From a bacterium (lineage in GTDB: Bacteria; Elusimicrobiota; Elusimicrobia; UBA1565; UBA9628), in the NCBI GenBank assembly GCA_021782205.1, contig JAJXVH010000003.1, forward strand, positions 31,931 to 95,930: 64,000 bases of DNA. Direction: 5' to 3'. A program made the position numbers and the translations under genes. Each line of letters starts with the position of its first letter. The first letter of the stretch is position 1. Below are positions 4,059-64,000 of this stretch, piece after piece. The notes beneath the pieces were generated by a model, which had not been told where the DNA came from, made no database searches, and saw only the letters and a list, made by a program, of their open reading frames with translations.

Positions 4059-4645
4059 ATTACAATATCGTCGCCATGCGAACCCTGCTCGCGCTGCTTC
4101 TGCTCCTCGCCGCTGCGCCGTCGCGCGCCGCGGACCCGGTCGCGGCGGACTCGTCGACGGTGCGTCTTGCCGACTACTTCGTCCAGACGCCGATCAACGA
4201 AGCCGACCCCAAGCTGGTCTCGCCGTTCCTGGCGCTCGACGCGCAGACGCTTCCCAAGCGTCTGCGCGAAAAAGCCCGGGCCAAGCAGTTGGCGATTCAA
4301 GCCCTGCTCAAGCTGCACGACACGAAAAAGAAGGGCAACTGGCTTCAGCCCGTCGGCGGCTGCACCGCGGAAAGCTTCGTCAAACCACTCAAGGACATCC
4401 CGGCCTACGCGATGGCCGGCTACGTGCCCATCACGGAAGAAGAGCTCAAGTACATCATGCACAAAACCAACTGCACGGAATTGGACCTGGGCTGCCAGTT
4501 CACCTTCACGATCTTCTACGATAAGAAAAAACCGCGCAAGCTGATGCTTCACCAAAACGACCCGATCGACGCCCTGGCGGCCGAATCCCACGGCCCGCAT
4601 GGTCAGACGAATTTCTTCGGCGTAGGCCTGACGTGCCAGCATTGA
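4055..4645 (+). CDS. hypothetical secreted protein
   Basis: 196 aa. ATGA overlap with the upstream stop. Signal peptide MRTLLALLLLLAAAPSRA. Four Cys in the mature part. Confidence 0.55.
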   Translation: MNYNIVAMRTLLALLLLLAAAPSRAADPVAADSSTVRLADYFVQTPINEADPKLVSPFLALDAQTLPKRLREKARAKQLAIQALLKLHDTKKKGNWLQPVGGCTAESFVKPLKDIPAYAMAGYVPITEEELKYIMHKTNCTELDLGCQFTFTIFYDKKKPRKLMLHQNDPIDALAAESHGPHGQTNFFGVGLTCQH

Positions 4646-4649
4646 CCCG

Positions 4650-6227
4650 GTGAGGGCTCTGCGCGCGCCCGCCCGCGCCTCCGTGTACGCGCCCACGACG
4701 CGGGCGCTGATTTTCGGCCTGATCGCCGCGGCCTTCGCGCTCTACGCGCGAACGTTCGCCTATCCGCCGCTGTGGGACGATCATTTCTACGTCGAGGGGC
4801 AGACGTTCCTGCGCGACCCGCGCGCGCTGGCCGCGGTTCTTAATCCGCGCCAGTTCCTCCGCATCCTGCCGACGGCGAACGCCGCGAGGCCGGTCTGGCT
4901 TTTCTCGGTCCTGCTGGACCGCGCTCTCCTCGGCTGGTCGTTCTGGGCCCTGCGCGCCTCCAGCACGCTGTGGTATGGCGTCGGCGCCGCGCTATTGGCG
5001 GCGCTGGTTTGGGAACTGACGACGGACGCCGCTGCCGCCGCGGCGGCGGGATTTCTTTTCGTCGCTCATCCGCTGCACGCTGAAGTCGTCGAAATCGTCT
5101 CATTTCGCGCCGACACCCTCGCCTTCCTTTTCGGCGTTCTCGCGCTTCTGCTGCACCTGCGCGCCTGGCGCTCGGAACATCCGAAGCCGCTTCGACTCGC
5201 GGCGCTGGCCGCGTTCGGTTTGGCGCTGCTGTCCAAGGAATCCGCAGCCGCCGTCGTGGTCCTGCTTCCGGTGGTCGATTCCGTCGCCTGCCCCGCGCCT
5301 CCCTGGCGGACGCGCGCGCGCGTTTACGCCGCGTTCGTTCTGCTCCTGGCGGCGTATCTGTACTACCGCACGCCGCGCGCGGGCTACGAGTCCAGCGCCG
5401 GGCCGGACGTCTTCACCGAACTGGCCCAGCGTGAACCCGCTCTGTTCGGTCCGGTCTCCCAGCCGAGCGACGACTGGGCGCGCGCTCCCGTCGGCCTCGG
5501 TAGCGGTCGGCACCGCGACCCGCGTCCGTGGGACCAAGATTTTTCGGCGCCACGGACGCACCTGCGCACGCTCGTGGTCGTACAAGGTTCTAATCTCCTC
5601 CGCTTGTTCTGGCCCTGGCCGCTTCAGGGCGACTACGCTCCCAAAACCGTGCGCCGCTGGCTCGATCCACGCCTGGCGGCGACGCTGGCCGGTTGGATGG
5701 TCCTGCTGGGGCTCGCGGCGGCGATGCGGCGACGAGCTCCTTTGTTGTCGGCGGGCCTGCTGTGGATTCCCGCCGCGCTCCTGCCCGTCAGCGGGATCGT
5801 CGCCATGCGCAACCTAACGGCGGACCGCTATCTCTATTTCGCTTCGGCCGGAGTCTGCCTCGCTCTGTCCGCGCTCGTCACCGCGCCTTTCGGTCGAGGT
5901 ACGCGCGCGCGCCGCGCGGCGTTTATTCTCTGCGGCGTCGTCGCCGCGTTTTGGATCGAACTCGGCCAAATGCGCCTGCCGGACTTCCGCAGCGACGCGG
6001 CCTATTTCGCGGCGACGATCGCCGTGGATCCCGACGTCCCTCGCGCGCGCTGCAACCTGGGCTTGGCGGAGTGGCGCGAAGGTCGCCTCGACGCCGCCGA
6101 AACCGACCTGCGCGCCGCGCTGACGCTCTGGCCTCAATCGCGCCAAGTGCGCGCCAATCTGGCCGACCTTCTGCAAAGTCGCGGCCGCGCGGACGAAGCC
6201 CGCGCGTTGCTGAACGCCGTCCCATGA
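4650..6227 (+). CDS. polytopic membrane protein, TMTC/PMT-like GT-C glycosyltransferase with C-terminal TPR repeats
   Basis: 525 aa with many hydrophobic helices. AHPLHAEVVEIVSFRADTLAF resembles the DUF1736/TMTC motif. C-terminal TPR-like NLGLAEWREGRLDAAETDLRAAL. Confidence 0.6.
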   Translation: MRALRAPARASVYAPTTRALIFGLIAAAFALYARTFAYPPLWDDHFYVEGQTFLRDPRALAAVLNPRQFLRILPTANAARPVWLFSVLLDRALLGWSFWALRASSTLWYGVGAALLAALVWELTTDAAAAAAAGFLFVAHPLHAEVVEIVSFRADTLAFLFGVLALLLHLRAWRSEHPKPLRLAALAAFGLALLSKESAAAVVVLLPVVDSVACPAPPWRTRARVYAAFVLLLAAYLYYRTPRAGYESSAGPDVFTELAQREPALFGPVSQPSDDWARAPVGLGSGRHRDPRPWDQDFSAPRTHLRTLVVVQGSNLLRLFWPWPLQGDYAPKTVRRWLDPRLAATLAGWMVLLGLAAAMRRRAPLLSAGLLWIPAALLPVSGIVAMRNLTADRYLYFASAGVCLALSALVTAPFGRGTRARRAAFILCGVVAAFWIELGQMRLPDFRSDAAYFAATIAVDPDVPRARCNLGLAEWREGRLDAAETDLRAALTLWPQSRQVRANLADLLQSRGRADEARALLNAVP

Positions 6228-7282
6228 ACGCGACCCTGTCGGTCGCCATCCTGACCCGCGCTCGTCCCGGTCTTCTGCGCGCGTGCCTGGACAGCGTCTT
6301 GCGCGCGGACCTTGGCAAAGTCCGGGAAGTGCTTGTCGTCGTCAACGGCCACGACCCGGAGGCGTGCGCCGTCGCCGCGGCCGCCGCGGAACGCGAGCCA
6401 CGCGTGCGCGCTCTCGAAATTCCGTTGTCGTCGCGCGGCCGCGCGCGCAACCTCGCCGCCGCGGCCGCGACGGGGCTGCTCCTGCATTTCCTCGACGACG
6501 ACGTGGTCGTTCCACTCGGTCTCTTCGCGGCGACCGTCGCGCGCTTCGCCGACGATCCCTCTCTCGCGGCCGTCGGCGGGCCCAACACGACGCCGCCGGA
6601 CAGTTCCGCGTTCGAGACCGCCGTCGGGCACCTGCTCTCCTCGCGGCTGGGCGCCTGGAGCATGCGCGCGCGCTACCGCCCCGTCGGCGCCGCGCGCGCG
6701 GCCGGCGAGGAGAGCCTGATGCTGTGCAGCCTCGCCTTTCGCGCCGGCGCCGACGGGCCAGGGGGCCTGCGTTTCGACGAGAGCCTGGCCTCGGCGGAGG
6801 AGAATCTTCTGCTGGAGCGCATTCGCCGCAAGGGCGGACGTGCGCTGTACGATCCCGACCTGTTCGTTTATCATCGCCGCCGCTCCGGCTGGAGAGGATT
6901 TTTAGCGCAGACGTTCCGGTCGGGCGCGGGCCGCAGCCAAACGGCCAGCCGCCTGCCTTCGATCCTGCGGCCGATACACCTGGCGCCGCCGCTCTTCGCG
7001 CTGTATCTGGCCGCGCTTGTCCTCCGCCCCAGCGCCGCCGCGGCACTGCCGCTGGCGGCGTACGCGGCGTGGCTTGGGCTGGAGACCGCCGCGGCCGCGC
7101 GCGCTCATGGCCCGCACGTGGCCGCGCTCTGCGCGGGGCTGACCCCTCTGCACCACCTCGCCTACGCGGCGGGCTTCCTGCTGGGACCTTTCTTTTGGGT
7201 CGAGCCCGAGCCCGGTCAGCGCCGCTCGACGACCAGCGCGCCGCCCATGCCGCCGCCCGCGCAGGCCGCGAGCAAGCCGTAG
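6224..7282 (+). CDS. glycosyltransferase family 2
   Basis: Internal ATG of ORF 5693..7282 (ATGA overlap with the upstream stop). SVAILTRARPGLLRACLDSV..., a DDD motif (HFLDDDVVV), and C-terminal TM helices. Confidence 0.8.
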   Translation: MNATLSVAILTRARPGLLRACLDSVLRADLGKVREVLVVVNGHDPEACAVAAAAAEREPRVRALEIPLSSRGRARNLAAAAATGLLLHFLDDDVVVPLGLFAATVARFADDPSLAAVGGPNTTPPDSSAFETAVGHLLSSRLGAWSMRARYRPVGAARAAGEESLMLCSLAFRAGADGPGGLRFDESLASAEENLLLERIRRKGGRALYDPDLFVYHRRRSGWRGFLAQTFRSGAGRSQTASRLPSILRPIHLAPPLFALYLAALVLRPSAAAALPLAAYAAWLGLETAAAARAHGPHVAALCAGLTPLHHLAYAAGFLLGPFFWVEPEPGQRRSTTSAPPMPPPAQAASKP

Positions 7283-8562
7283 CGGCCCTTCGGGTTCTTC
7301 TTCAGCGCGTGAACTAGGTTCAGCATCAAGCGCGCGCCCGTGGCCCCCAGCGGATGGCCGACGGCGATCGAGCCGCCGTTGGGATTCAGCGCGCCGGACG
7401 CGTTCTTGGCCGCCCAATCGTGGCCGAATTTATCCTTGCCCAGCTTGAAGATCGACAGCACCGTGGCCGCGAACGGCTCGTGCAGCTCGATCTGGTCGAG
7501 CGCGTCGAAGGAGACGCCCGCGCGCTGGAGCGCGACCGGAGCGGCGAGCGCGGGGGCCACGCCCATGTGCGCGGGATTATTCCCGACGAACCCCCAGCCC
7601 TTGATCTCGGCCAGGACCTCAAGGCCGAGGGCTTTCGCCTTTTCCGCCGTGGTCACGATCACGGCGGCCGCACCGTCGGAGCGGCCACAGGAGTTGAACA
7701 AGGTCACGCTGCCCTTCATTCCTTCCTGGTAGGACTTGCCCTCGACGTGGCGGCCGTAGTCCCGGTAGAAATCCTTCAGCGAATAGGCCGAGTTGTCGAA
7801 CAGCACGGGCGCCTTGGCGAACATCTGAGGCTTCTCGACCAGGTCCTCGCGCAGGAACGGGTACTCGTCCTTGTCGAGCACGGCCTGGCCGCCGCGCGTC
7901 ACCGGGACCACGTGCGTGTCGTAGAAGCCGGACTTCCAGCCGGCGAGGCTGCGGCGGAAGCTCTCGCGCGCGTAGGCGTCCTGCTCATCGCGGCCGATGC
8001 CGTACATCTGCGCGCAGACCTCGGCGGTGCCGGCCATGTTGATCTTCTCGACGGGGTCGGTCAGACCGGCCTCCATCGCGTCGACGACGGACACATCGGG
8101 CGTGGTCAGCAGCTCCCCCCACTTCGCCTTCACCGTGTCGAGGCTGCGCAGGGCCTTGGCCGCGCGCGAACCGTCGATGGTGTAGGGCAGGCGCGACATG
8201 ACCTCGGTGCCGCCGGCCAGGTAGAGCTCGCCTTCGCCCGCCAGGATGAAGCGCGCGGCCGCCGCGATCGACTCGATGGAGGACACGCAATTGTTCTGCA
8301 CGGTCACCGACTGCACCCTCTCCGGCAGGCCCGCGCGCAGCGCGGCCACGCGCGCGATGTTGGGCGCTTGAAAGCCTTGCCCGACCCAGCCGGCGATCAC
8401 GCCGTCGACGGCGTCCTTGGGCAGGCGAGAGCGCTCCAAAGTCGCGACCAAGGCGTCCACCAGCAAAGCGTCGGCGGTCAGACCCGCCAAGGAGCGCGAC
8501 AGATGCCCGATGGGCGTACGCGCGCCGCCGGCCACGACGATCGTCTTTGAAGATGCGTTCAT
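7216..8562 (-). CDS. thiolase-family acetyl-CoA acetyltransferase (long form)
   Basis: 448 aa. N-terminal IVVAGGARTPIG, NNCVSSIESI (active-site Cys region), and C-terminal GGSIAVGHPLGATGARL...CAGGGMGGALVVE. Confidence 0.85.
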   Translation of the reverse strand: MNASSKTIVVAGGARTPIGHLSRSLAGLTADALLVDALVATLERSRLPKDAVDGVIAGWVGQGFQAPNIARVAALRAGLPERVQSVTVQNNCVSSIESIAAAARFILAGEGELYLAGGTEVMSRLPYTIDGSRAAKALRSLDTVKAKWGELLTTPDVSVVDAMEAGLTDPVEKINMAGTAEVCAQMYGIGRDEQDAYARESFRRSLAGWKSGFYDTHVVPVTRGGQAVLDKDEYPFLREDLVEKPQMFAKAPVLFDNSAYSLKDFYRDYGRHVEGKSYQEGMKGSVTLFNSCGRSDGAAAVIVTTAEKAKALGLEVLAEIKGWGFVGNNPAHMGVAPALAAPVALQRAGVSFDALDQIELHEPFAATVLSIFKLGKDKFGHDWAAKNASGALNPNGGSIAVGHPLGATGARLMLNLVHALKKNPKGRYGLLAACAGGGMGGALVVERR

Positions 8563-55949: not shown

Positions 55950-57178
55950 TGAAGATCGCGGTCATGAAGTTCGGCGGCACGTCGGTGGCTGATCCAGAGA
56001 AGATCGCGCGCGCGGCCGAGCGCGCCATCGCCGCGCGCCGCCGCGGCGACGCGGTGGTCGTCGTGGTGTCCGCGCCCGGCGAGATGACCGACGAGCTGAT
56101 CGCGTTGGCCGAGCGCGTGACCTCGACGCCCGACGAACGCGAGCTCGACCAGTTGATCGCGACGGGCGAGCAGGTGGGCATCGCGTTGTTCGCGCTGGCG
56201 TGCAAGGCGCGCGGCGCCGACGCGGTCTCGCTGACCGGGCCTCAGGCCGGCATCGACGCGGTCGGCGGGGCGGGGCGCGCGCAGATCCGCCGCATACGGA
56301 CGCGCGCCGTCCTCAAGCATCTGAAGGCCGGGCGCATCGTCGCGGTGGCCGGCTTCCAAGGCCTGGCGCCGAACGGCGACACGGCCACGCTGGGCCGCGG
56401 CGGCTCGGACCTGACGGCGGTGGCCCTCGCCTCCGCGCTGAAGACCGGCCGCTGCGAGATCTTCTCCGACGTCAAGGGCGTCTACACCGCCGACCCGCGC
56501 ATCGTCCACGACGCGCGCAAGCTCAAGACGATCTCGTTCGAGGAGATGCTGGAGCTGGCCGGCGCCGGCGCGCAGGTCATGCAGGCGCGGTCCATGGAGG
56601 TCGCCGAGCGCTTCGGCGTGGAGCTGCACGTGCGCTCCGCTTTTCACAATCAGTCCGGCACGCGCGTGGTCGCTCAGGAGGGTTCCATGCTGGAAAAAGC
56701 GTTCGTCTCAAGCCTCGCCCTCGACAAGAGCGAGGTCCGCCTGACCATCGTCGGCGTGCCCGACCAGCCCGGCGTGGCCGCGACCGTGCTCGGGGCGCTC
56801 GCCGCCGACGGCATCCCCGTCGACATGATCATCCAGTCCGCCGCCAGCCAGTCCGGGGTCAACGACATGTCCTTCATGACACCGAGAAACTTCGCGGTGA
56901 AGGCCAAGAAATCCCTGGAGGCCGCCGCGCGGCGACTGCGCGCGGAGCGCGTGGACCTCAATGATCAAGTCGCCAAGGTTTCCGCCGTGGGCACGGGCTT
57001 CCGCCACAGCCCGCGCATCGCCGCGACCATGTTCGAGGCGCTGGCCCGGTCCAAGATCAACATCCACATGATCTCGGGCTCCGATCTGCGCGTGTCCTGC
57101 GTGGTCGACCTCAAGGACGGCGAGTCGGCCCTGCGCGCCGTGCACAAGGCCTACGGCTTGGCGCGCGGGAGGCGTTAA
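55949..57178 (+). CDS. lysC: aspartate kinase
   Basis: Internal ATG of ORF 55460..57178. [26 protein letters not shown], and tandem ACT domains. Confidence 0.93.
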   Translation: MKIAVMKFGGTSVADPEKIARAAERAIAARRRGDAVVVVVSAPGEMTDELIALAERVTSTPDERELDQLIATGEQVGIALFALACKARGADAVSLTGPQAGIDAVGGAGRAQIRRIRTRAVLKHLKAGRIVAVAGFQGLAPNGDTATLGRGGSDLTAVALASALKTGRCEIFSDVKGVYTADPRIVHDARKLKTISFEEMLELAGAGAQVMQARSMEVAERFGVELHVRSAFHNQSGTRVVAQEGSMLEKAFVSSLALDKSEVRLTIVGVPDQPGVAATVLGALAADGIPVDMIIQSAASQSGVNDMSFMTPRNFAVKAKKSLEAAARRLRAERVDLNDQVAKVSAVGTGFRHSPRIAATMFEALARSKINIHMISGSDLRVSCVVDLKDGESALRAVHKAYGLARGRR

Positions 57179-57712
57179 GTGTCCGTCTTCGTCGCCATCG
57201 ACTTCGAGACCGCCGACAAGGGTCAAGATTCCGCCTGCTCCGTGGGGCTGGTGCGCGTCGAAAACGGCACGATCGCCCGCAAGGTCGTGCAGTTGATCCG
57301 CCCGCCGCGCTTGGATGAGGGCGACCTGTTCACGCCTCCGCCCAGCGAGTTCCAGTTCACCTACATCCACGGCATCAAGCCGCACATGGTGCTGGACCAG
57401 CCCACGTTCGCCGAGGCCTGGCCCCGGCTTGAGCCCATCCTCGCCGGCGCGGACTTCATGGCCGCGCACAACGCGCCGTTCGACTCCGGCGTGCTGACCG
57501 CCTGCTGCGCCGCCGCGCGCCTGCCCAAGCCCCCGCACCGCTTCGTCGACACCGTGCGCCTGGCGCGCGAGACCTGGAAGATTTATCCCACGAAACTGCC
57601 CGACGTCTGCCGCCACCTCGACATTCAGCTCAACCACCATGAAGCCCTCTCCGACGCCGAGGCCTGCGCGCGCATCGTCATCGCCGCCGAGAAGCGGGGC
57701 GTGCGACTGTAG
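57179..57712 (+). CDS. DEDDh 3'-5' exonuclease (DnaQ/epsilon-like)
   Basis: 177 aa. Exo I FVAIDFETAD, Exo II AHNAPFDSGVL, Exo III HHEALSDAEA. Confidence 0.85.
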   Translation: MSVFVAIDFETADKGQDSACSVGLVRVENGTIARKVVQLIRPPRLDEGDLFTPPPSEFQFTYIHGIKPHMVLDQPTFAEAWPRLEPILAGADFMAAHNAPFDSGVLTACCAAARLPKPPHRFVDTVRLARETWKIYPTKLPDVCRHLDIQLNHHEALSDAEACARIVIAAEKRGVRL

Positions 57713-57788
57713 CGGATAGCCGCGGCGTTCGGGGAAAAACGAAGCGCCCGAAGCTTGGCTCGCTCCGGGCGCCTGTCTCAGGGGGACG

Positions 57789-57935
57789 TCAGTGCTTGCG
57801 CGCTTTGCGAACGATCTCGTCCTTACGGGCGCGGCGCAGGTTGTCGGCGATGATGTGGGCCGCGTCGTGCGTCCAGCGGTTCTCCAGAATCCGCTTCGGA
57901 TCGCACGTCACGCGGGCCGCCAGCGCAAGCTTCAT
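57789..57935 (-). CDS. hypothetical 48-aa basic protein (weak call)
   Basis: ATG...TGA ORF below the track cutoff: MKLALAARVTCDPKRILENRWTHDAAHIIADNLRRARKDEIVRKARKH. Lies in a 369-nt gap. No motif recognised. Confidence 0.3.
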   Translation of the reverse strand: MKLALAARVTCDPKRILENRWTHDAAHIIADNLRRARKDEIVRKARKH

Positions 57936-58081
57936 GTTTTGAGTATACCCCCGCCGCGCCTCCGGCGCATTGCAGGAGTGTTACGAAATGGCGAAGTCTG
58001 AAACGCCAAAAGCGACACGCGGCGGCGGGGCACCCCTCGATATCGTCTATAATACCCGCGCGCCGCCGCACGGAGGACGCC

Positions 58082-58285
58082 ATGGATGACAATCTGAAAA
58101 ATAAATTCGACACGCTGCAGAAGGAGCTGGGCCGCGCGCCTAAGGCGGACGCGCGCGCGCGCCAACAGCTGGCCGACGCCGTCGCCGGCCTGCGCGCCGC
58201 GGGCGCGCAGTTCGAGGCCACGCACCCGGCGCTGACCGCGCTGGTCGACCAGATCTGCCGCGAACTCGCGGAGCTGGGAATTTAG
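58082..58285 (+). CDS. DUF4404-like small protein
   Basis: 67 aa. The ending ...FEATHPALTALVDQICRELAELGI matches the characteristic DUF4404 C-terminus. Confidence 0.6.
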   Translation: MDDNLKNKFDTLQKELGRAPKADARARQQLADAVAGLRAAGAQFEATHPALTALVDQICRELAELGI

Positions 58286-58305
58286 CGCCGGCCAGGAGCG
58301 CCCGA

Positions 58306-59127
58306 ATGAAGAACCAGACGATCGCCGTGGTCGGGGCCGGACACATGGCCGGAGCGCTGATCGGCGGGATGGTCCGCTCCAAGCTGGTGCCCGCCCGGTC
58401 GATCGTCGCCGCGCGCCGCTCCGCCGACGCGTTGGCCGAGCTGCAGAAGAAGTGGGGCGTGCGCACGACCACGGACAACCGCAAGGCCGTCGCCGAGGCC
58501 GACATCGTGATGCTCGCCGTCAAGCCGCAGATGGCCAAGAAAGTCATGGAGGATCTGGCCGGCGCCGTGCGCACCGATCAGCTGGTGATCTCGGTGATGG
58601 CGGGCGTGACCACGGCCGCCATCAACAAGGCCCTGCGCGTCGACTGCCCCGTGGTGCGCGCCATGCCCAACACGCCGTGCCTGGTGGACGCGGGGGCCAC
58701 CGCCATCGCCGCCGGCGCTCACGCGGGCGACAAGGACCTGGCCCGCGCCGAAGCGGTGTTCGCCTCCGTCGGCCTGGTCGCGACCTTGCCCGAGTCCGCG
58801 CTGGACGCCGTCACCGGCCTGTCCGGCTCCGGCCCCGTCTACATCTACATGGTCATCGAGGCGATGATCGACGGCGGAGTCAAGATGGGCATCCCACGCG
58901 CGATCGCGGCGAAACTCGCCGCGCAGACCGTCTACGGCGCGGCCAAGCTGGTGCTGGAGACCGGCAAGCACCCGGCCATCCTCAAGGACGAGGTCACCAC
59001 CCCCGGCGGCACCGCGATCAGCGCCATCCACGTCCTGGAAAGCCGCGGTCTGCGCTCCGTGCTGATCGACGGCGTGGTCGCCGCGACCAACCGCTCCTCG
59101 GAACTTTCGAAGCTTCTCGCGGAATAA
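58306..59127 (+). CDS. proC: pyrroline-5-carboxylate reductase
   Basis: 273 aa. IAVVGAGHMAGAL, RAMPNTP, and GLSGSGPVYIYMVIEAM...VTTPGGTAI. Confidence 0.93.
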   Translation: MKNQTIAVVGAGHMAGALIGGMVRSKLVPARSIVAARRSADALAELQKKWGVRTTTDNRKAVAEADIVMLAVKPQMAKKVMEDLAGAVRTDQLVISVMAGVTTAAINKALRVDCPVVRAMPNTPCLVDAGATAIAAGAHAGDKDLARAEAVFASVGLVATLPESALDAVTGLSGSGPVYIYMVIEAMIDGGVKMGIPRAIAAKLAAQTVYGAAKLVLETGKHPAILKDEVTTPGGTAISAIHVLESRGLRSVLIDGVVAATNRSSELSKLLAE

Positions 59128-59185
59128 CGTCCTTGACGCGCGCGCGTCAAGCTGTTATAACCTCCGAAGACGAGACACGTCCGAC

Positions 59186-59224
59186 CCGGAACGCCGAGCC
59201 TGGGGCGCTCCGGTTTTTATTTTT
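59186..59224 (+). terminator. rho-independent terminator downstream of proC
   Basis: CCGGAACGCC / GGCGCTCCGG stem (9 of 10 bp) followed by TTTTTATTTTT. Confidence 0.6.
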
Positions 59225-59229
59225 ACGGC

Positions 59230-60384
59230 TTGCCACAAGAACATATCGACGCCACCTTGATCACCGCCCGCGAGCACCTGGAAGAGGTGTGCGCGGAGCT
59301 GGCGAAATGCCCGCGTCTGGCCTTCGACACCGAGTCGAACGGCTTCTACGCCTACAAGGAGCGCGTCTGCCTGGTGCAGATCTCCTCGCCGACCGAGGAC
59401 TTCATCGTCGATCCCATCGCGATCCCCGATCTGGCGGCGCTGGGGCCCCTGTTCGCCGACCCCAAGATCGAGAAGCTGTTCCACGCCGGCGAATACGACG
59501 TGCTCTGCCTCAAGCGCGACTACGGCTTCCGGTTCGCCAATCTCTACGACACGATGATCGCGGCGCGCGTGCTGGGCATCAAGGAGTTGGGGCTGGCCGC
59601 CGCCATCGAGCGCCAGTTCGGCCTCGTGATCTCCAAGAAGCTCCAGCGCGCGGACTGGGGGCGCCGTCCGCTGACTCAGGAGATGCTGCGCTACGCCCAG
59701 GGCGACACGCACTACCTGATGCGCGTGGCCGACGAGCAGAAGAAGGCTCTCATCGAAAAAGGCCGCTGGGGCGACGCGTCGGAGGCCTTCCGCGAGCTGG
59801 AGCGCCTGGAGCCCAACGTCAAGACCTTCGACCCCGAGGGCTTCTGGAAGCTGGTCGGCCGCCAGGAGCTGGGCGGCGCGGCCATGGCCGCGCTCAAGGA
59901 AATCTGGCTGTACCGCGAACAGCAGGCCGCGGCGCGCGACCGCGCGCCGTTCCGGGTGATGCCCGAGGACTTGATGACGCGCATCGCCCAGGCCTTGCCC
60001 GAGACGAAGGAGGCGCTGGCCGCGGTCAAGGGAATGTCGCCCTACATTTTGGAACGCTTCGGCCCGGGGCTTCTGGCCTGCGTGGAGCGCGGCCGCGCGG
60101 CCGCGCCGCTGACGCGCCCGGCCGCCGCGCCGCGCCAGCGGATGCCCGAGGATGAATGGAAGCTGTTCGAGGCCTTGCGCGCCTGGCGCAAGGAGCGCGC
60201 GGAAAAAGACGGCGTCGAGCCCGTCGTCGTGATGTCGAGCGAATCCTTGCGCCAGATCGCGGCGCACGGCTCGCGCCCCGGCGGCGACCCCCTGGCCCCG
60301 CTCTCCGAGCTCAAGAAGACGCGCTACGGCGACGACGTCCGCCGCGTCGTCGCGGCGACCTTGCCCGCCAAGCCCGCCGTTTAA
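59230..60384 (+). CDS. rnd: ribonuclease D (DEDDy exonuclease plus HRDC domain)
   Basis: 384 aa with TTG start. LAFDTESNGFYAYKERVCLVQIS, HAGEYD, YAQGDTHYL, and C-terminal HRDC-like WRKERAEKDGVEPVVVMS. Confidence 0.85.
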   Translation: MPQEHIDATLITAREHLEEVCAELAKCPRLAFDTESNGFYAYKERVCLVQISSPTEDFIVDPIAIPDLAALGPLFADPKIEKLFHAGEYDVLCLKRDYGFRFANLYDTMIAARVLGIKELGLAAAIERQFGLVISKKLQRADWGRRPLTQEMLRYAQGDTHYLMRVADEQKKALIEKGRWGDASEAFRELERLEPNVKTFDPEGFWKLVGRQELGGAAMAALKEIWLYREQQAAARDRAPFRVMPEDLMTRIAQALPETKEALAAVKGMSPYILERFGPGLLACVERGRAAAPLTRPAAAPRQRMPEDEWKLFEALRAWRKERAEKDGVEPVVVMSSESLRQIAAHGSRPGGDPLAPLSELKKTRYGDDVRRVVAATLPAKPAV

Positions 60385-60391
60385 GCGGCGT

Positions 60392-60592
60392 TCAGCCGTC
60401 CAAAGCGCGGCGCAGGCGTTCCTTCGCCGCGTCGCTAAGGCCCGGCCCCGACTCCGGCAACCTGCTGACCGCCGCGCCCAGCACGGCGAACTGCGCCCGG
60501 GCCCGGCGGCAGACGTCGCAGAGCCAAAGGTGAACGTGAGCGCGCCAATCCAGGCGCCGCCCATCGCGCTCCGCCGACAGCCGGCGCGACAT
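60392..60592 (-). CDS. small zinc-binding anti-sigma factor (ZAS, HxxxCxxC), no TM segment
   Basis: 66-aa internal ATG of ORF 60392..60730, 23 nt downstream of the ECF sigma stop. Motif HLWLCDVC. Confidence 0.6.
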   Translation of the reverse strand: MSRRLSAERDGRRLDWRAHVHLWLCDVCRRARAQFAVLGAAVSRLPESGPGLSDAAKERLRRALDG

Positions 60593-60615
60593 GTCGCGGC
60601 AGTCGGGCAGAACGC

Positions 60616-61206
60616 TCACGCGGCCTCCGGCGCGAAATAGCCTTTTTCCAGGCACCGGCGCAGACGCATGCGCGCGCGGTAGAGGAGAACCGCCAGATGG
60701 CCCGGAGGCACGCCCAGCGTCTGGGCGCACTCTCCGTGCTCCACGCCCTCCATCTCGCGCAGCACGAAAGCCCGCGCGACGTTCGGCGTCAGCGCGTCCA
60801 GGCAGCCGCGCAGAGCCGCGGCAAATTCGTCGCTCTCCGCCCGGGCGTGCGGCTCGCCGCCCCAGTCGGCCGGGGCGTCGGAGCCGCGCCAGTGGCCGTC
60901 GGCCTCGAACCAGGCGTTTTCCCGCTCGTCCTCGCCGTCGCCGCCGAGGGACAGGGTCGACTCGCGCGCCTGGCGGCGCAGATGCTCGAAGATCTTGTTG
61001 CGCAGGATGCCGATCAACCAGGTCAGCTCCGTGGAACGTCCTTCGAATCGCGCGCGCGCGCCCAGCGCCGCGACCAGCGCGTCCTGCACCAAGTCCTCGG
61101 CCGCGCGCTCATCGCGGATGCGCGAGAGCGCGTAGCGGAACAGCCGGTCGCCGTAGGCCGTCACCCAGCCGGCCGGGTCCGACGCACTCTTTTCAGCGGG
61201 AGCCAT
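60616..61206 (-). CDS. ECF-family RNA polymerase sigma factor
   Basis: 196 aa. Region 2 DRLFRYALSRIRDERAAEDLVQDALV...WLIGILRNKI. Region 4 FVLREMEGVEHGECAQTLGVPPGHLAVLLYRARMRLR. Confidence 0.9.
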   Translation of the reverse strand: MAPAEKSASDPAGWVTAYGDRLFRYALSRIRDERAAEDLVQDALVAALGARARFEGRSTELTWLIGILRNKIFEHLRRQARESTLSLGGDGEDERENAWFEADGHWRGSDAPADWGGEPHARAESDEFAAALRGCLDALTPNVARAFVLREMEGVEHGECAQTLGVPPGHLAVLLYRARMRLRRCLEKGYFAPEAA

Positions 61207-61975
61207 GTCCCTCCGGGACGACCTCGGCGACCAGGCGCGCGTCAGCGACGAAGGCGAATAAGCCGCGCGCGCCCTCTTCGTCCAAACCGGAGTATTCCAG
61301 CGCGGCCCCCAACGGGCGGCCCGCCGCCAACGCCGTCAAAGCGGCGTACTCCGGGACGCTCAGCTCGCGTGTGAAAATCTCGTTGGTCCCGCGTTTATAA
61401 AGGACCAGGCGCTGCGCGCCTTCCCAGTCCCCGGACTCAAGCGGGGTATCGTCGGCGCGGTCGCGCTTCCATATCCCATAAATGGAATGCTTGAACGACA
61501 GCAAAACACAGGCCGCGCCCAAGCGCAGAATGGATTGCGGGCCGGCCGCCGCGGCCAGCGCCGCGGGCTCAAGCCCTTCCTGCGCGCGCGCGTGGAACAA
61601 GCGCAGGAACGCCCACTCAAGCCGCGCCAGATCGCCGAGAAACGGCGCGCCCTGGGCCTGGGGACGCGCCTCCAAAAACTCGGGAAAGCTCTCCCCGTAA
61701 TCCGATAAATTATAGGACCGCGACGGGGCGCGCGCGATGAAGTCCCGCGCGGCGGCGAAGAATTCCTCGTCGCCCATGACGCGCCAGCAGGCCTCGTAGG
61801 TTTCGCCCAACGCCTCGGTCAGGCGCGCCGGGTAGGCGTCTCGGTAGACGCCGATCGCCTCGGCGGCCGACAGCCGCCCGCCGCCGGTCACCGCCGCGAT
61901 CAGGTCCGCGTCGGCCGCGAACGTGACCGAGCGCACGAAGCGCCTCTGCAGGCGCTCAAGCGGGCTTGAGCTCAT
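61193..61975 (-). CDS. DUF2063-family partner protein (BufC-like)
   Basis: 260 aa. N-terminal LERLQRRFVRSV... The start overlaps the DUF692 stop by 20 nt. This is the canonical position after DUF692. Confidence 0.75.
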   Translation of the reverse strand: MSSSPLERLQRRFVRSVTFAADADLIAAVTGGGRLSAAEAIGVYRDAYPARLTEALGETYEACWRVMGDEEFFAAARDFIARAPSRSYNLSDYGESFPEFLEARPQAQGAPFLGDLARLEWAFLRLFHARAQEGLEPAALAAAAGPQSILRLGAACVLLSFKHSIYGIWKRDRADDTPLESGDWEGAQRLVLYKRGTNEIFTRELSVPEYAALTALAAGRPLGAALEYSGLDEEGARGLFAFVADARLVAEVVPEGHGSR

Positions 61976-62804
61976 GCTCCTCCCGGCGGATCTCGCGCGC
62001 CTTCACCGCCTGCGCCTCAAGACCCGCCCAGTCCGGGATGTCCGCGTCCCACTCGATGAGCGTCGGCGCGTCCGGCAGGCGCCGGATCGCGCGGCGATAG
62101 AGCTCCCAGACCGGAGGCGTGGGCGCGCGCGAGTGCGTGTCGAACAGGAACGCGCCCATGTCCGAGTAGCCGCCCAAATGAATCTGCGCGACCAGCTCCG
62201 CCGGCACCGCGTCAATATAATCTTCCGCGGCGAAGCCGTGGTTTTGGGCGCTGACGTAGGCGTTGTTGACGTCCAGCAAAATGCGGCAGTCCGCGCGCCG
62301 CGCCACCGCGATCAAGAACTCCCACTCCGTCATCACGGACTCGCGATAGGACAGGTAGCTGGACACGTTTTCAAGCGCCAGGCGCCGCCCCAATGCGTCC
62401 TGCGCGACGGCCACGTTGCGCGCGACCGTGGCGATCGCCTCTTCGGTGTAGGGCAGGGGCAGGAGGTCGTGCACGTTCGACGCGTGCGCGCCGGTGAAGC
62501 ACAGGTGGTCGCTGACCACGAAAGGATCCACGCGGTCGGCCAGCTGGCGCAAGCGCCGGAAATACTCCGGGCGCGGGCCCTCGACGCCGCCGACGGACAG
62601 CGACACGCCGTGCAGGGCGACCGGATAGTCCTCGCGTATTTTAAGCAGGATCTCCAGAGGGCGGCCCTCGGAATCCATGTAGTTTTCAGAGATGGCCTCG
62701 AACCAATCCACCGCCGTGCGCGGACGTCCGAGCAGGTAGGGGTAGTGGACCGAACGCAGGCCCACGCCCGTCATTCCCGCCCGGACGCCCGGCGCCGACT
62801 TCAT
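61956..62804 (-). CDS. DUF692/UPF0276 MNIO-family enzyme (MbnB/BufB-like)
   Basis: Internal ATG overlapping the precursor stop (ATGA). GVGLRSVHYPYLL, WFEAISENYM, HGVSLSVGG, SDHLCFTG, LENVSSYL, LLDVNNAYVSAQNHGF, QIHLGGYS, TLIEWD. Confidence 0.9.
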   Translation of the reverse strand: MKSAPGVRAGMTGVGLRSVHYPYLLGRPRTAVDWFEAISENYMDSEGRPLEILLKIREDYPVALHGVSLSVGGVEGPRPEYFRRLRQLADRVDPFVVSDHLCFTGAHASNVHDLLPLPYTEEAIATVARNVAVAQDALGRRLALENVSSYLSYRESVMTEWEFLIAVARRADCRILLDVNNAYVSAQNHGFAAEDYIDAVPAELVAQIHLGGYSDMGAFLFDTHSRAPTPPVWELYRRAIRRLPDAPTLIEWDADIPDWAGLEAQAVKAREIRREEHELKPA

Positions 62805-63049
62805 TTCTTCGCGGTGAACGTGCCGCCGCGTCCCGTGCAGTCGGACGTCGTCAGACTGATCCAGCCCTGGCCCTTGCAGGAATTCTGGCCCGCGCACGCG
62901 TGACCGGGGCCGCCGCACTCGCTGGTGCCCTTGCAAGAATTGACGCCGTGGCATTCCACCTTAGCCACCGGCGCGCCGCCCATGTGCGCGCAGCCCGCCG
63001 ACATCACCGCCGCCAACGCCGCCGCCGTCAACGCCGCTTTTCGATCCAT
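62801..63049 (-). CDS. secreted Cys-rich RiPP precursor, bufferin (BufA, 6-Cys type)-like
   Basis: 82 aa. Signal peptide MDRKAALTAAALAAVMSAGCA. Core VECHGVNSCKGTSECGGPGHACAGQNSCKGQGWISLTTSDCTGRGGTF with six Cys in CxG/CKG contexts. AGGAGG 8 nt upstream. Confidence 0.8.
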   Translation of the reverse strand: MDRKAALTAAALAAVMSAGCAHMGGAPVAKVECHGVNSCKGTSECGGPGHACAGQNSCKGQGWISLTTSDCTGRGGTFTAKK

Positions 63050-63188
63050 CGGGTTTCCTCCTGGAATAGAACGTCTCCAAGTCAGTGCCGCCGGGGCGCC
63101 TGAAATGACAGGTCATTCAACAATTTCCTGACGCGGCCGTCATCCGCCGCAGACAGCTTTTCCGGCCGGAACGCGGCACAATCCCGAC

Positions 63189-63935
63189 ATGATCACGACC
63201 GACGCCGAACTCCACGCCGAAACGACCCGCGAGACCGAGTCCGTACTCGACGCTCAGCGCCTGCGCCGCCGGCTTTCGACCGCCTCCGCGGCCGGCCGCG
63301 GCGAAAGCCTCCTGCCCTACGACATCGACCGGCACGACCTCCATTGCGCGCACGTGCTGGTGCGCGAAGGCCGCCACGGGCGCGTCCTGGCCTGCGCGCG
63401 CCTGCTCGACGCCGGCGGCGCGATGTCGGCCGGCGGCTTCTGCTGCCAGCAGGCCTTCCTGATCACGCGCGCGCTGACCTTGCCCGGCCGCCTGCTGGAG
63501 GTCAGCGGCGTCTGCGTCATACCGGGCCGCCGTCGCGACACGGCGCTGGCGGCGCTATGGTCGATGGTCACGCGCGAGGCGGCCGCGCGCGGCGTCTCCC
63601 ATCTGATCGCCTGCGCGAGCGTCCCGTTCGATCCGGAGATCGAGTCGCTGGAACCCCTGCGGCGCGGGCTGACGCCATTTTGGTCGTCCGACGGCTGGCG
63701 CGTTCATCCCCGCCGACCCGTCCCGCGCGACCCCGCAGAGCCCTCGCGCGACGCGGCCCGGCCGGATCTGCTGACCGACTACCTGAGCTTGGGCGCGCGC
63801 ATCGGCGGGGAGCCGTCCTGGGACCCAGAGGGCGGCGTCGCGGATTTTTTCCTGATAATCCCCGTGGATGTCGCCCGAACGTCTTACCAGCTCACGTCCA
63901 AAGGAGGAAGCCCCTCCGACGAGGTGCGCGCGTAG
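63189..63935 (+). CDS. OlsB-like GNAT N-acyltransferase (lyso-ornithine-lipid synthase family)
   Basis: 248 aa. YDIDRHDLHCAHVLVRE (DxxDxxCxHLLV-type) and C-terminal LLTDYLSLGARIGGEPSWDPEGGVADFFLII. Confidence 0.7.
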   Translation: MITTDAELHAETTRETESVLDAQRLRRRLSTASAAGRGESLLPYDIDRHDLHCAHVLVREGRHGRVLACARLLDAGGAMSAGGFCCQQAFLITRALTLPGRLLEVSGVCVIPGRRRDTALAALWSMVTREAAARGVSHLIACASVPFDPEIESLEPLRRGLTPFWSSDGWRVHPRRPVPRDPAEPSRDAARPDLLTDYLSLGARIGGEPSWDPEGGVADFFLIIPVDVARTSYQLTSKGGSPSDEVRA

Positions 63936-64000
63936 ATCGGACCCACGCGCTCGTGGGCCTTGCGCACGCGCGCAACTCCTGTTATATACCGCGCAGATGG

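Follow-up and report, generated by a model that had tools for sequence, protein, structure and literature searches.

A probable Buf2-type bufferin operon with its own ECF sigma factor and a putative mini-ZAS anti-sigma factor in an Elusimicrobiota bacterium

Bufferins (captophorins) are recently recognised and very widespread copper-binding RiPPs (peptides made by the ribosome and modified after translation), whose regulation has so far been described for a few Pseudomonadota only. Here we describe a locus at positions 60392-63049 of a 64,000-nucleotide stretch of Elusimicrobiota DNA (assembly GCA_021782205.1, contig JAJXVH010000003.1, positions 31,931 to 95,930; this whole stretch is called the window hereafter). 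The locus is probably a five-gene Buf2-type bufferin biosynthetic operon with its own regulator pair, an extracytoplasmic function (ECF) sigma factor and a small anti-sigma factor of the ZAS type (mini-ZAS), and within this reading we assign the identities of the five genes with high confidence. One close described system is the buf2 operon of Caulobacter vibrioides (bufA2-bufB2-bufC2, CCNA_03001-02999), which resembles the window operon in its six-Cys precursor family, Sec-type signal, BufB-type MNIO enzyme, DUF2063 partner and gene order (PMC11626156, PMC12452194). The Caulobacter bufferins are induced by copper and are protective (PMC11626156). Caulobacter buf2 is under the trans control of SigF together with the anti-sigma protein NrsF, which has six transmembrane segments and is encoded with SigF near buf1, whereas the regulators of the window lie inside the operon. 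The window sigma factor, for which TIGR02943 is the nearest model, belongs to a different subgroup from Caulobacter SigF, the anti-sigma factor is a putative soluble mini-ZAS, and the precursor is a predicted lipoprotein, unlike that of Caulobacter buf2. A survey from 2025 listed sigma genes for Buf1 clusters and none for Buf2 clusters (PMC12452194), and in its supplementary table the cultured Elusimicrobium minutum is without bufferin genes.

A second close system is the Neisseria meningitidis operon NMB2140-2145, which is expressed as a single sigmaE-dependent, autoregulated transcript ending in rpoE and the gene for the ZAS anti-sigma factor MseR (PMC2893595). The operon contains a DoxX protein and three cluster genes (PMC7907618), and the peptide of the Neisseria cluster is gonophorin, of the EGKCG type (PMC13097082). 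The system with sigmaE (NMB2144/NGO1944) and MseR (NMB2145) shares with the window a secreted precursor rich in Cys, an MNIO enzyme, a DUF2063 protein (NGO1945, 3DEE), an ECF sigma factor and a small soluble ZAS protein, with MseR ligands at C4 and H30-x3-C34-x2-C37 (PMC2893595) as compared with C7, H30, C34 and C37 in the window. The two differ in the precursor (EGKCG repeats in Neisseria, BufA2 type in the window), in the DoxX-family gene that is present in the Neisseria operon and missing from the window operon, and in the promoter, which is GTMAGBWTT / CGTCTAAH with a 12-13-nt spacer in Neisseria, unlike TGWMAT-N17-CACTSA in the window. The hosts belong to Betaproteobacteria and Elusimicrobiota, respectively. 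The window operon is thus like the Neisseria system in gene content and order, but is not the same orthologous operon. A preliminary description of the window, made from its letters alone, had presented the inclusion of the regulators in the operon as a variant architecture; with NMB2140-2145 as a precedent (PMC2893595), the novelty was overstated.

In Haemophilus influenzae, the ECF sigma factor RpoE2 and HrsE, a 67-aa cytoplasmic ZAS, are likewise a mini-ZAS and sigma pair that controls a homologous MNIO/DUF2063 RiPP cluster (PMC7907618). This cluster has the order DoxX-COG3767-UPF0276-DUF2063 and is induced under HOCl and H2O2 stress (PMC7907618). Unlike in the window, the regulators and the RiPP cluster of H. 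influenzae are at separate loci, so that control is in trans, DoxX is present, and the regulon is broader, including msrAB, mtsZ and dmt (PMC7907618).

The five minus-strand open reading frames that had been reported at 60392-63049 were found at these coordinates, both in the list of open reading frames and when the junctions were read in the sequence. The stop codon of bufA2 and the start codon of bufB overlap by 4 nt (ATGA), bufB and bufC overlap by 20 nt, and bufC and the sigma gene by 14 nt; with the last junction, described below, all five genes are tied together by overlaps of 4-20 nt. The same layout is present in public gene calls for this genome (contig DAHZIF010000344.1 of assembly GCA_027401775.1), where products of 82, 282, 260, 196 and 75 aa are encoded with overlaps of 4, 20, 14 and 4 nt. 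The neighbours of the operon are an RNase D gene that converges on it (59230-60384, plus strand) and a divergent gene for an OlsB-like GNAT protein (63189-63935, plus strand; PF13444, with weak matches to NCBIfam ornithine-lipid OlsB models). These flanks indicate that the operon consists of exactly five genes, with no space for a DoxX gene within it. No RNA family was found by an Rfam scan of positions 56000-64000. The hairpin at the 3′ end of the operon was no better than that of shuffled sequence (z -1.4), and a terminator scan returned matches in coding regions only, at about chance level.

A BufB scan of one genome per species gave 80 loci (numbered with the prefix L below), and gene order was mapped by tblastn. 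The lack of DoxX, which had been put forward as a distinguishing feature of the window, was confirmed for the operon and, by tblastn with two DoxX queries (a search of limited sensitivity), for the 64-kb window. It is not a departure from known systems, because the Caulobacter buf2 operon is also without DoxX and DoxX is dispensable even for Buf1 (PMC11626156). The same two queries detected DoxX in only 12 of the 80 loci, none of them from Elusimicrobiota. We therefore rejected the absence of DoxX as a meaningful trait, since absence is the norm for Buf2 clusters.

The first gene, bufA2 (62801-63049, minus strand), encodes an 82-aa Buf2-type bufferin precursor that passes the NF050166 equivalog (72.3 bits versus a cut-off of 60), with positions 5-78 of the 79 profile positions covered. 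The precursor begins with MDRKAALTAAALAAVMSAGC and has a predicted lipoprotein signal peptide with the lipobox VMSAG-C20. The lipobox Cys, preceded by small residues, is kept in the Elusimicrobiota BufA2 homologues whose N-terminus could be read, which fits a lipoprotein signal; such a signal is predicted for about 16% of Buf2 precursors (PMC12452194). The core contains six Cys residues, C33, C39, C45, C52, C58 and C71. A disulfide links the first Cys of Caulobacter Buf2 to the last, and its four central Cys residues are each modified with a shift of -4 Da (PMC11626156); these modifications were later assigned class-wide as 5-thiooxazoles (PMC13097082). Such modification of central Cys residues, along with copper binding, is known for both Buf1 and Buf2 of Caulobacter (PMC11626156). 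By analogy with Caulobacter Buf2, the corresponding Cys residues of the window BufA2 would be the modified ones.

The second gene, bufB (61956-62804, minus strand), encodes a 282-aa MNIO (DUF692) maturase, which scored 335.1 bits against NF050167 (MNIO_BufB; cut-off 310) and 323.8 bits against PF05114 (E 9.3e-97). The third, bufC (61193-61975, minus strand), encodes a 260-aa DUF2063/HvfC_N partner protein (PF09836, 73.8 bits versus a cut-off of 27.2) whose C-terminal half is winged-helix or RRE-like. The AlphaFold2 (AF2) model of BufC had a pLDDT of 92, and its best full-length folds in the PDB were chain A of the TglHI holoenzyme (8hci_A, E 2.3e-6) and NGO1945 (3dee, E 6.4e-3), which supports a role as the MNIO partner. 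BufC did not pass the NCBIfam HvfC equivalog (42 versus 142), a model that describes the oxazolin branch, and a phmmer search of PDB sequences with BufC gave no matches. Together, the profile matches bear out the preliminary proposal of a bufferin-type RiPP cluster (precursor, DUF692/MNIO and DUF2063 genes) joined to an ECF sigma gene and a gene for a small HxxxCxxC protein, in that PF05114, PF09836 and the BufA2 model were all matched.

Even if synthesis and modification of the peptide follow the proposed route, its role might be something other than copper buffering: it could give protection from another metal or from oxidants (HOCl, chlorite), or act as a redox buffer anchored in the membrane. 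In several bacteria, DUF692/DUF2063 mutants are sensitive to chlorite (bioRxiv 10.1101/072470), HOCl induces the Haemophilus cluster (PMC7907618), and fusions of MerC with bufferins suggest that other metals are handled (PMC12452194). Moreover, a cytoplasmic ZAS sensor fits thiol or oxidant stress more obviously than it fits periplasmic copper. On the other hand, both characterised bufferins as well as fontiphorin, oxazolin and gonophorin bind copper (PMC11626156, PMC13097082), and the window precursor passes a curated BufA2 equivalog that is named for a metallophore. On balance, we regard a role other than copper buffering as unlikely and retain copper as the expected ligand of the window bufferin.

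The fourth gene (60616-61206, minus strand) encodes a 196-aa ECF sigma factor. Regions sigma2 and sigma4 were matched by PF04542 (E 3e-15, 56.2 bits) and PF08281 (E 3.5e-10, 39.8 bits), and the protein scored 76.6 bits against TIGR02937 (cut-off 42.9). These are its only domains in about 190 aa, as for ECF (group 4) sigma factors. The top subfamily model was TIGR02943, at 158.2 bits just under the cut-off of 162.2; several orthologues carry the JGI label 'TIGR02943 family', and the same model was also the top one for the Bdellovibrionota sigma factors that adjoin related clusters. The sigma factor had 472 database relatives at E<=1e-10. All of the best 120 were at least 64% identical to it, and the few of these 120 with an organism name were Elusimicrobia. 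ECF18/RpoT, which had been considered as a candidate sigma group, was dropped after PMC3597554 gave no link to DUF692 clusters.

Upstream of bufA2 lies a putative ECF-type promoter (63082-63110, minus strand), composed of TGTCAT (63110-63105), a 17-nt spacer and CACTGA (63087-63082). It is followed by a short 5′ leader (63050-63081, minus strand) with the Shine-Dalgarno sequence AGGAGG at 63062-63057. In the loci that carry it, the element takes the form TG(A/T)(C/A)AT-N17-CACT(C/G)A, with a constant geometry, a variable spacer sequence and a distance of about 15-60 nt from the bufA2 start. When both strands of the 64-kb window were searched for GWMAT-N17-MACTSA, this was the single match, compared with 0.11 expected. 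The motif was present once upstream of bufA2 in 16 of the 20 Elusimicrobiota loci, as compared with four scattered matches in the 60 loci from other phyla. A scan of 60250-63300 for sigma-70-type promoters found none.

The 20 closest BufB loci were all from Elusimicrobiota metagenome-assembled genomes and showed 67-94% BufB identity. The order bufA2-bufB-bufC-sigma-anti-sigma was found in L002, L003, L004, L005, L007, L010, L011, L015, L016, L018 and L019, and it was kept in L036 with an inserted gene pair, which makes at least 12 related loci besides the window. Loci sampled via the sigma factor (L081, L083) carry the same operon, which was also found in the sampling via the anti-sigma factor. 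The lineage that had been called apparently uncharacterised and GC-rich is Elusimicrobiota, where this architecture is common. In L001, the locus with 94% BufB identity, comparison of L001:3549-3931 with window positions 60200-61399 showed that exactly the segment corresponding to window 60398-61216 (sigma and anti-sigma genes) is missing; L001 retains bufA2BC and the motif as well as the convergent RNase D gene, which bufC abuts. In L006, only the last ~29 codons of the anti-sigma gene remain. This pattern indicates that the regulator pair is gained or lost as a clean two-gene module, and in all of the loci compared the anti-sigma gene was lost together with the sigma gene.

The motif was found in all 13 sigma-carrying loci that were read, the window included. 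Four sigma-less loci (L001, L006, L008 and L014) had a readable upstream region and downstream context. Among these, L008 and L014, which show no sign of a recent deletion, are without the motif, and L001 and L006, which look like recent deletions, retain it. Two further loci, L013 and L017, carry the motif on contigs that stop before the presence of a sigma gene can be read. In L036, a second copy of the motif lies directly after bufC, ahead of geneX-bufA2'-sigma-anti-sigma. This distribution fits what autoregulation by the co-encoded ECF sigma factor would yield; it is a correlative pattern among phylogenetically related loci, and recognition of the motif by the co-encoded sigma factor is what we infer from it. 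The conserved promoter-like motif supports the autoregulation that the preliminary description had asserted, which we would now put as a reasonably probable circuit.

One alternative for the regulators is that they are passengers: bufA2BC would be driven by another motif-reading sigma factor or by read-through, and the main targets of the pair would lie elsewhere and might include methionine sulfoxide reductase genes, as they do in Neisseria and Haemophilus. The retention of the motif in L001 and L006 tells against autoregulation, because a sigma factor encoded elsewhere could read the motif there. Known mini-ZAS regulons also extend beyond their own operons (PMC2893595, PMC7907618). Read-through into bufA2 is possible in one subclade (L010, L011, L013, L015 and L017-L019, at ~4600-4720), in which the -35 box and the stop codon of the preceding same-strand gene overlap; the product of that gene ends in ...RYGVPxDRSxDLKKP*. 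In contrast, a passenger pair does not account well for the presence of the motif in every sigma-carrying locus and its absence from the two sigma-less loci without deletion traces, or for the second copy in L036, which directly precedes the unit containing the sigma gene. Furthermore, the overlaps of 14 nt and 4 nt bind the regulator genes to bufC, and no internal copy of the motif was found ahead of the sigma gene in the colinear loci. We think it improbable that the pair is a passenger and continue with the reading in which the sigma factor drives its own operon.

The fifth gene (60392-60619, minus strand) encodes a 75-aa protein with no transmembrane segment, a putative mini-ZAS anti-sigma factor. 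The preliminary description was right that the fifth product is small, apparently cytoplasmic and contains HxxxCxxC; its length of 66 aa and the 23-nt gap ahead of it were not upheld. That call used the ATG at 60592; translation instead starts at 60619, on a GTG that shares bases with the stop codon of the sigma gene (GTGA). The shorter form lost the N-terminus and thereby hid the fourth predicted zinc ligand, C7. The exact 75-aa sequence exists in a public protein collection, and all 17 homologues found are 75-80 aa long with a conserved N-terminus, MSxxPDCRDMSRRLSE. In the 17-sequence alignment the predicted ligands C7, H30, C34 and C37 are invariant and form the pattern C7-x22-H30-x3-C34-x2-C37. 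The protein has no hydrophobic segment, and its AF2 model has four helices and a pLDDT of 81.

RsrA/SigR of Streptomyces and ChrR/RpoE of Rhodobacter are the reference ZAS anti-sigma systems. The window protein resembles them in its HxxxCxxC with an upstream Cys/His ligand, its helical domain and its solubility. It differs in being shorter (75 aa), in having no ChrR-like C-terminal cupin, and in showing no significant sequence or fold match to the reference ZAS proteins. Several results weigh against its identification as an anti-sigma factor. The 22 residues between Cys7 and His30 are one fewer than the ZAS range of X23-26 (PMC7907618). Neither the 66-aa nor the 75-aa form matched Pfam zf-HC2 (PF13490) at E<=1, and the match to NF052368 ('antisigmaE') reached 24.5 bits (E 1.8e-5), which is under the cut-off of 50. 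When the model was compared with the PDB by Foldseek, only ChrR (E 2.4) and RslA (E 7.1) were found; both are ZAS proteins, and both matches are non-significant. An hmmsearch of PDB sequences with the alignment gave chance matches only.

In pairwise profile comparisons with hhalign, however, the ligands of the window protein were in register with those of a zf-HC2 protein (E 6.5e-4) and of a Bdellovibrionota mini-ZAS (E 1.5e-5), both of which are encoded beside related clusters. No match to NrsF (PF06532/DUF1109) was found for the window protein, and among the loci sampled only L031 (Leptospirales) had a pair of the NrsF type. On the grounds of position, translational coupling, ligand conservation and the weak profile and fold matches, we accept the 75-aa protein as a putative mini-ZAS anti-sigma factor. 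It is very improbable that the protein is instead an unrelated small one with a zinc or redox function, such as chaperoning the precursor or helping to load BufB with iron, and that the sigma factor is controlled otherwise: no curated profile was passed, there was no significant PDB match in sequence or fold, and its 17 sequence matches are confined to close relatives, but its placement and coupling right after an ECF sigma gene are the canonical anti-sigma arrangement, the four ligands are invariant with ZAS spacing, the sole two Foldseek matches, though weak, are both ZAS anti-sigma factors, the ligand register with recognised ZAS proteins is kept, and its loss is always joint with that of the sigma factor.

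If these assignments are correct, a mechanism can be proposed from characterised relatives and ZAS precedents. BufB and BufC would convert the four central Cys residues of BufA2 into 5-thiooxazoles in the cytoplasm, and the outer two would form a disulfide. After export through Sec and lipidation at Cys20, the product would stay attached to the membrane on the periplasmic side and chelate copper there. At rest, the zinc-loaded anti-sigma factor (C7/H30/C34/C37) would sequester the sigma factor. Thiol-reactive stress in the cytoplasm would then free the zinc or oxidise the anti-sigma Cys residues; candidate stresses are Cu(I), HOCl or peroxide, disulfide stress and electrophiles. The freed sigma factor would transcribe the whole operon from TGTCAT-N17-CACTGA, giving bufferin, more sigma factor as a positive loop and more anti-sigma factor as a reset. 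The steps of modification, export, lipidation and copper chelation are suggested by the characterised relatives, and the zinc- or thiol-based release and the autoregulation by the ZAS precedents. Two points count against this proposal: oxidants did not induce the Neisseria system (PMC2893595), and the operon structure, the transcription start and the sigma dependence are all deduced from the sequence.

A more specific possibility is that the operon forms a complete 'sense-and-buffer' cassette of its own. In this version, Cu(I) or other thiol-reactive stress in the cytoplasm would be sensed directly by the mini-ZAS through C7/H30/C34/C37, positive and negative feedback within one operon would set the output, and the regulator pair would be a detachable module. 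We offer this version tentatively. If the sense-and-buffer reading is true, the window operon would be the first Buf2 system regulated in cis and would give the first description of bufferin regulatory logic outside Pseudomonadota, with a new ECF promoter specificity, TGWMAT-N17-CACTSA.

The colinear operon of Buf2 genes, ECF sigma gene and mini-ZAS gene appears to be undescribed in the literature consulted, and the published survey did not find such an arrangement for Buf2; here a Buf2-type cluster of Elusimicrobiota is hard-wired to its own sigma factor and mini-ZAS. Each module and the overall logic have characterised precedents, so that the gain is incremental: the locus is a recombination of two known modules and not a new kind of system. 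With only five genes and a candidate promoter, the unit could be useful for studying how a mini-ZAS in the cytoplasm controls a metallophore or metal buffer in the periplasm.

Clusters with an ECF sigma gene and a ZAS gene were also found in other phyla. In the Bdellovibrionales locus L032 (3072-6618), a divergent sigma gene nearest TIGR02943 and a gene for a 79-aa ZAS adjoin a BufA2-type cluster whose precursor scored 59.1 bits versus the cut-off of 60. The Acidobacteriaceae loci L051 (cluster at 4578-8152) and L056 encode a Buf2-like precursor (33 bits), BufB, BufC, DoxX, an ECF sigma factor of another subgroup and an 89-aa zf-HC2 protein. In the Pseudobdellovibrio locus L052 (4732-7797), a CKG-repeat precursor, BufB, BufC, DoxX, an ECF sigma factor and an 80-aa ZAS are encoded. 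The clusters of L032, L051 and L052 are at odds with the published claim that Buf2 clusters lack sigma genes.

Several further features were seen around the operon and its relatives. Immediately upstream of the -35 box, the window has an A/T-rich element (63111-63130, minus strand) with a consensus close to GGAAATTGTTTGAT, which is limited to the window subclade, L001-L006 included; an UP element is one possible role, and an operator common to the operon and the divergent GNAT gene another. Synteny of the OlsB-like GNAT gene with the buf operon is kept in L002, L005, L007, L016, L036, L081 and L084, and in L081 a PlsC-type acyltransferase gene follows the GNAT gene. The GNAT and PlsC-type genes may be ornithine-lipid genes that share an intergenic region with the buf operon. 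An ABC-F gene follows bufC in L006, L008, L009 and L014, and the same ABC-F gene is downstream of the anti-sigma gene in L015.

Both L036 (6572-7739) and L015 (9313-10481, minus strand) encode a secreted protein of ~290-305 aa (MKNLLALSVFL...QEVWKWQ) with no Pfam match, followed by a second BufA2 gene that scored 57 bits against NF050166; in L036, this pair has its own copy of the motif and lies between bufC and the sigma gene. The Elusimicrobiota loci L009 (1-1066) and L012 (1-1179) contain bufB-bufC with no detectable bufA2 in the 240-370 nt available upstream. Finally, L081 encodes a 228-aa protein with Cys-rich repeats (6807-7493, minus strand; PF00839, E 5e-7), which is convergent to the operon and located just downstream of the anti-sigma gene.

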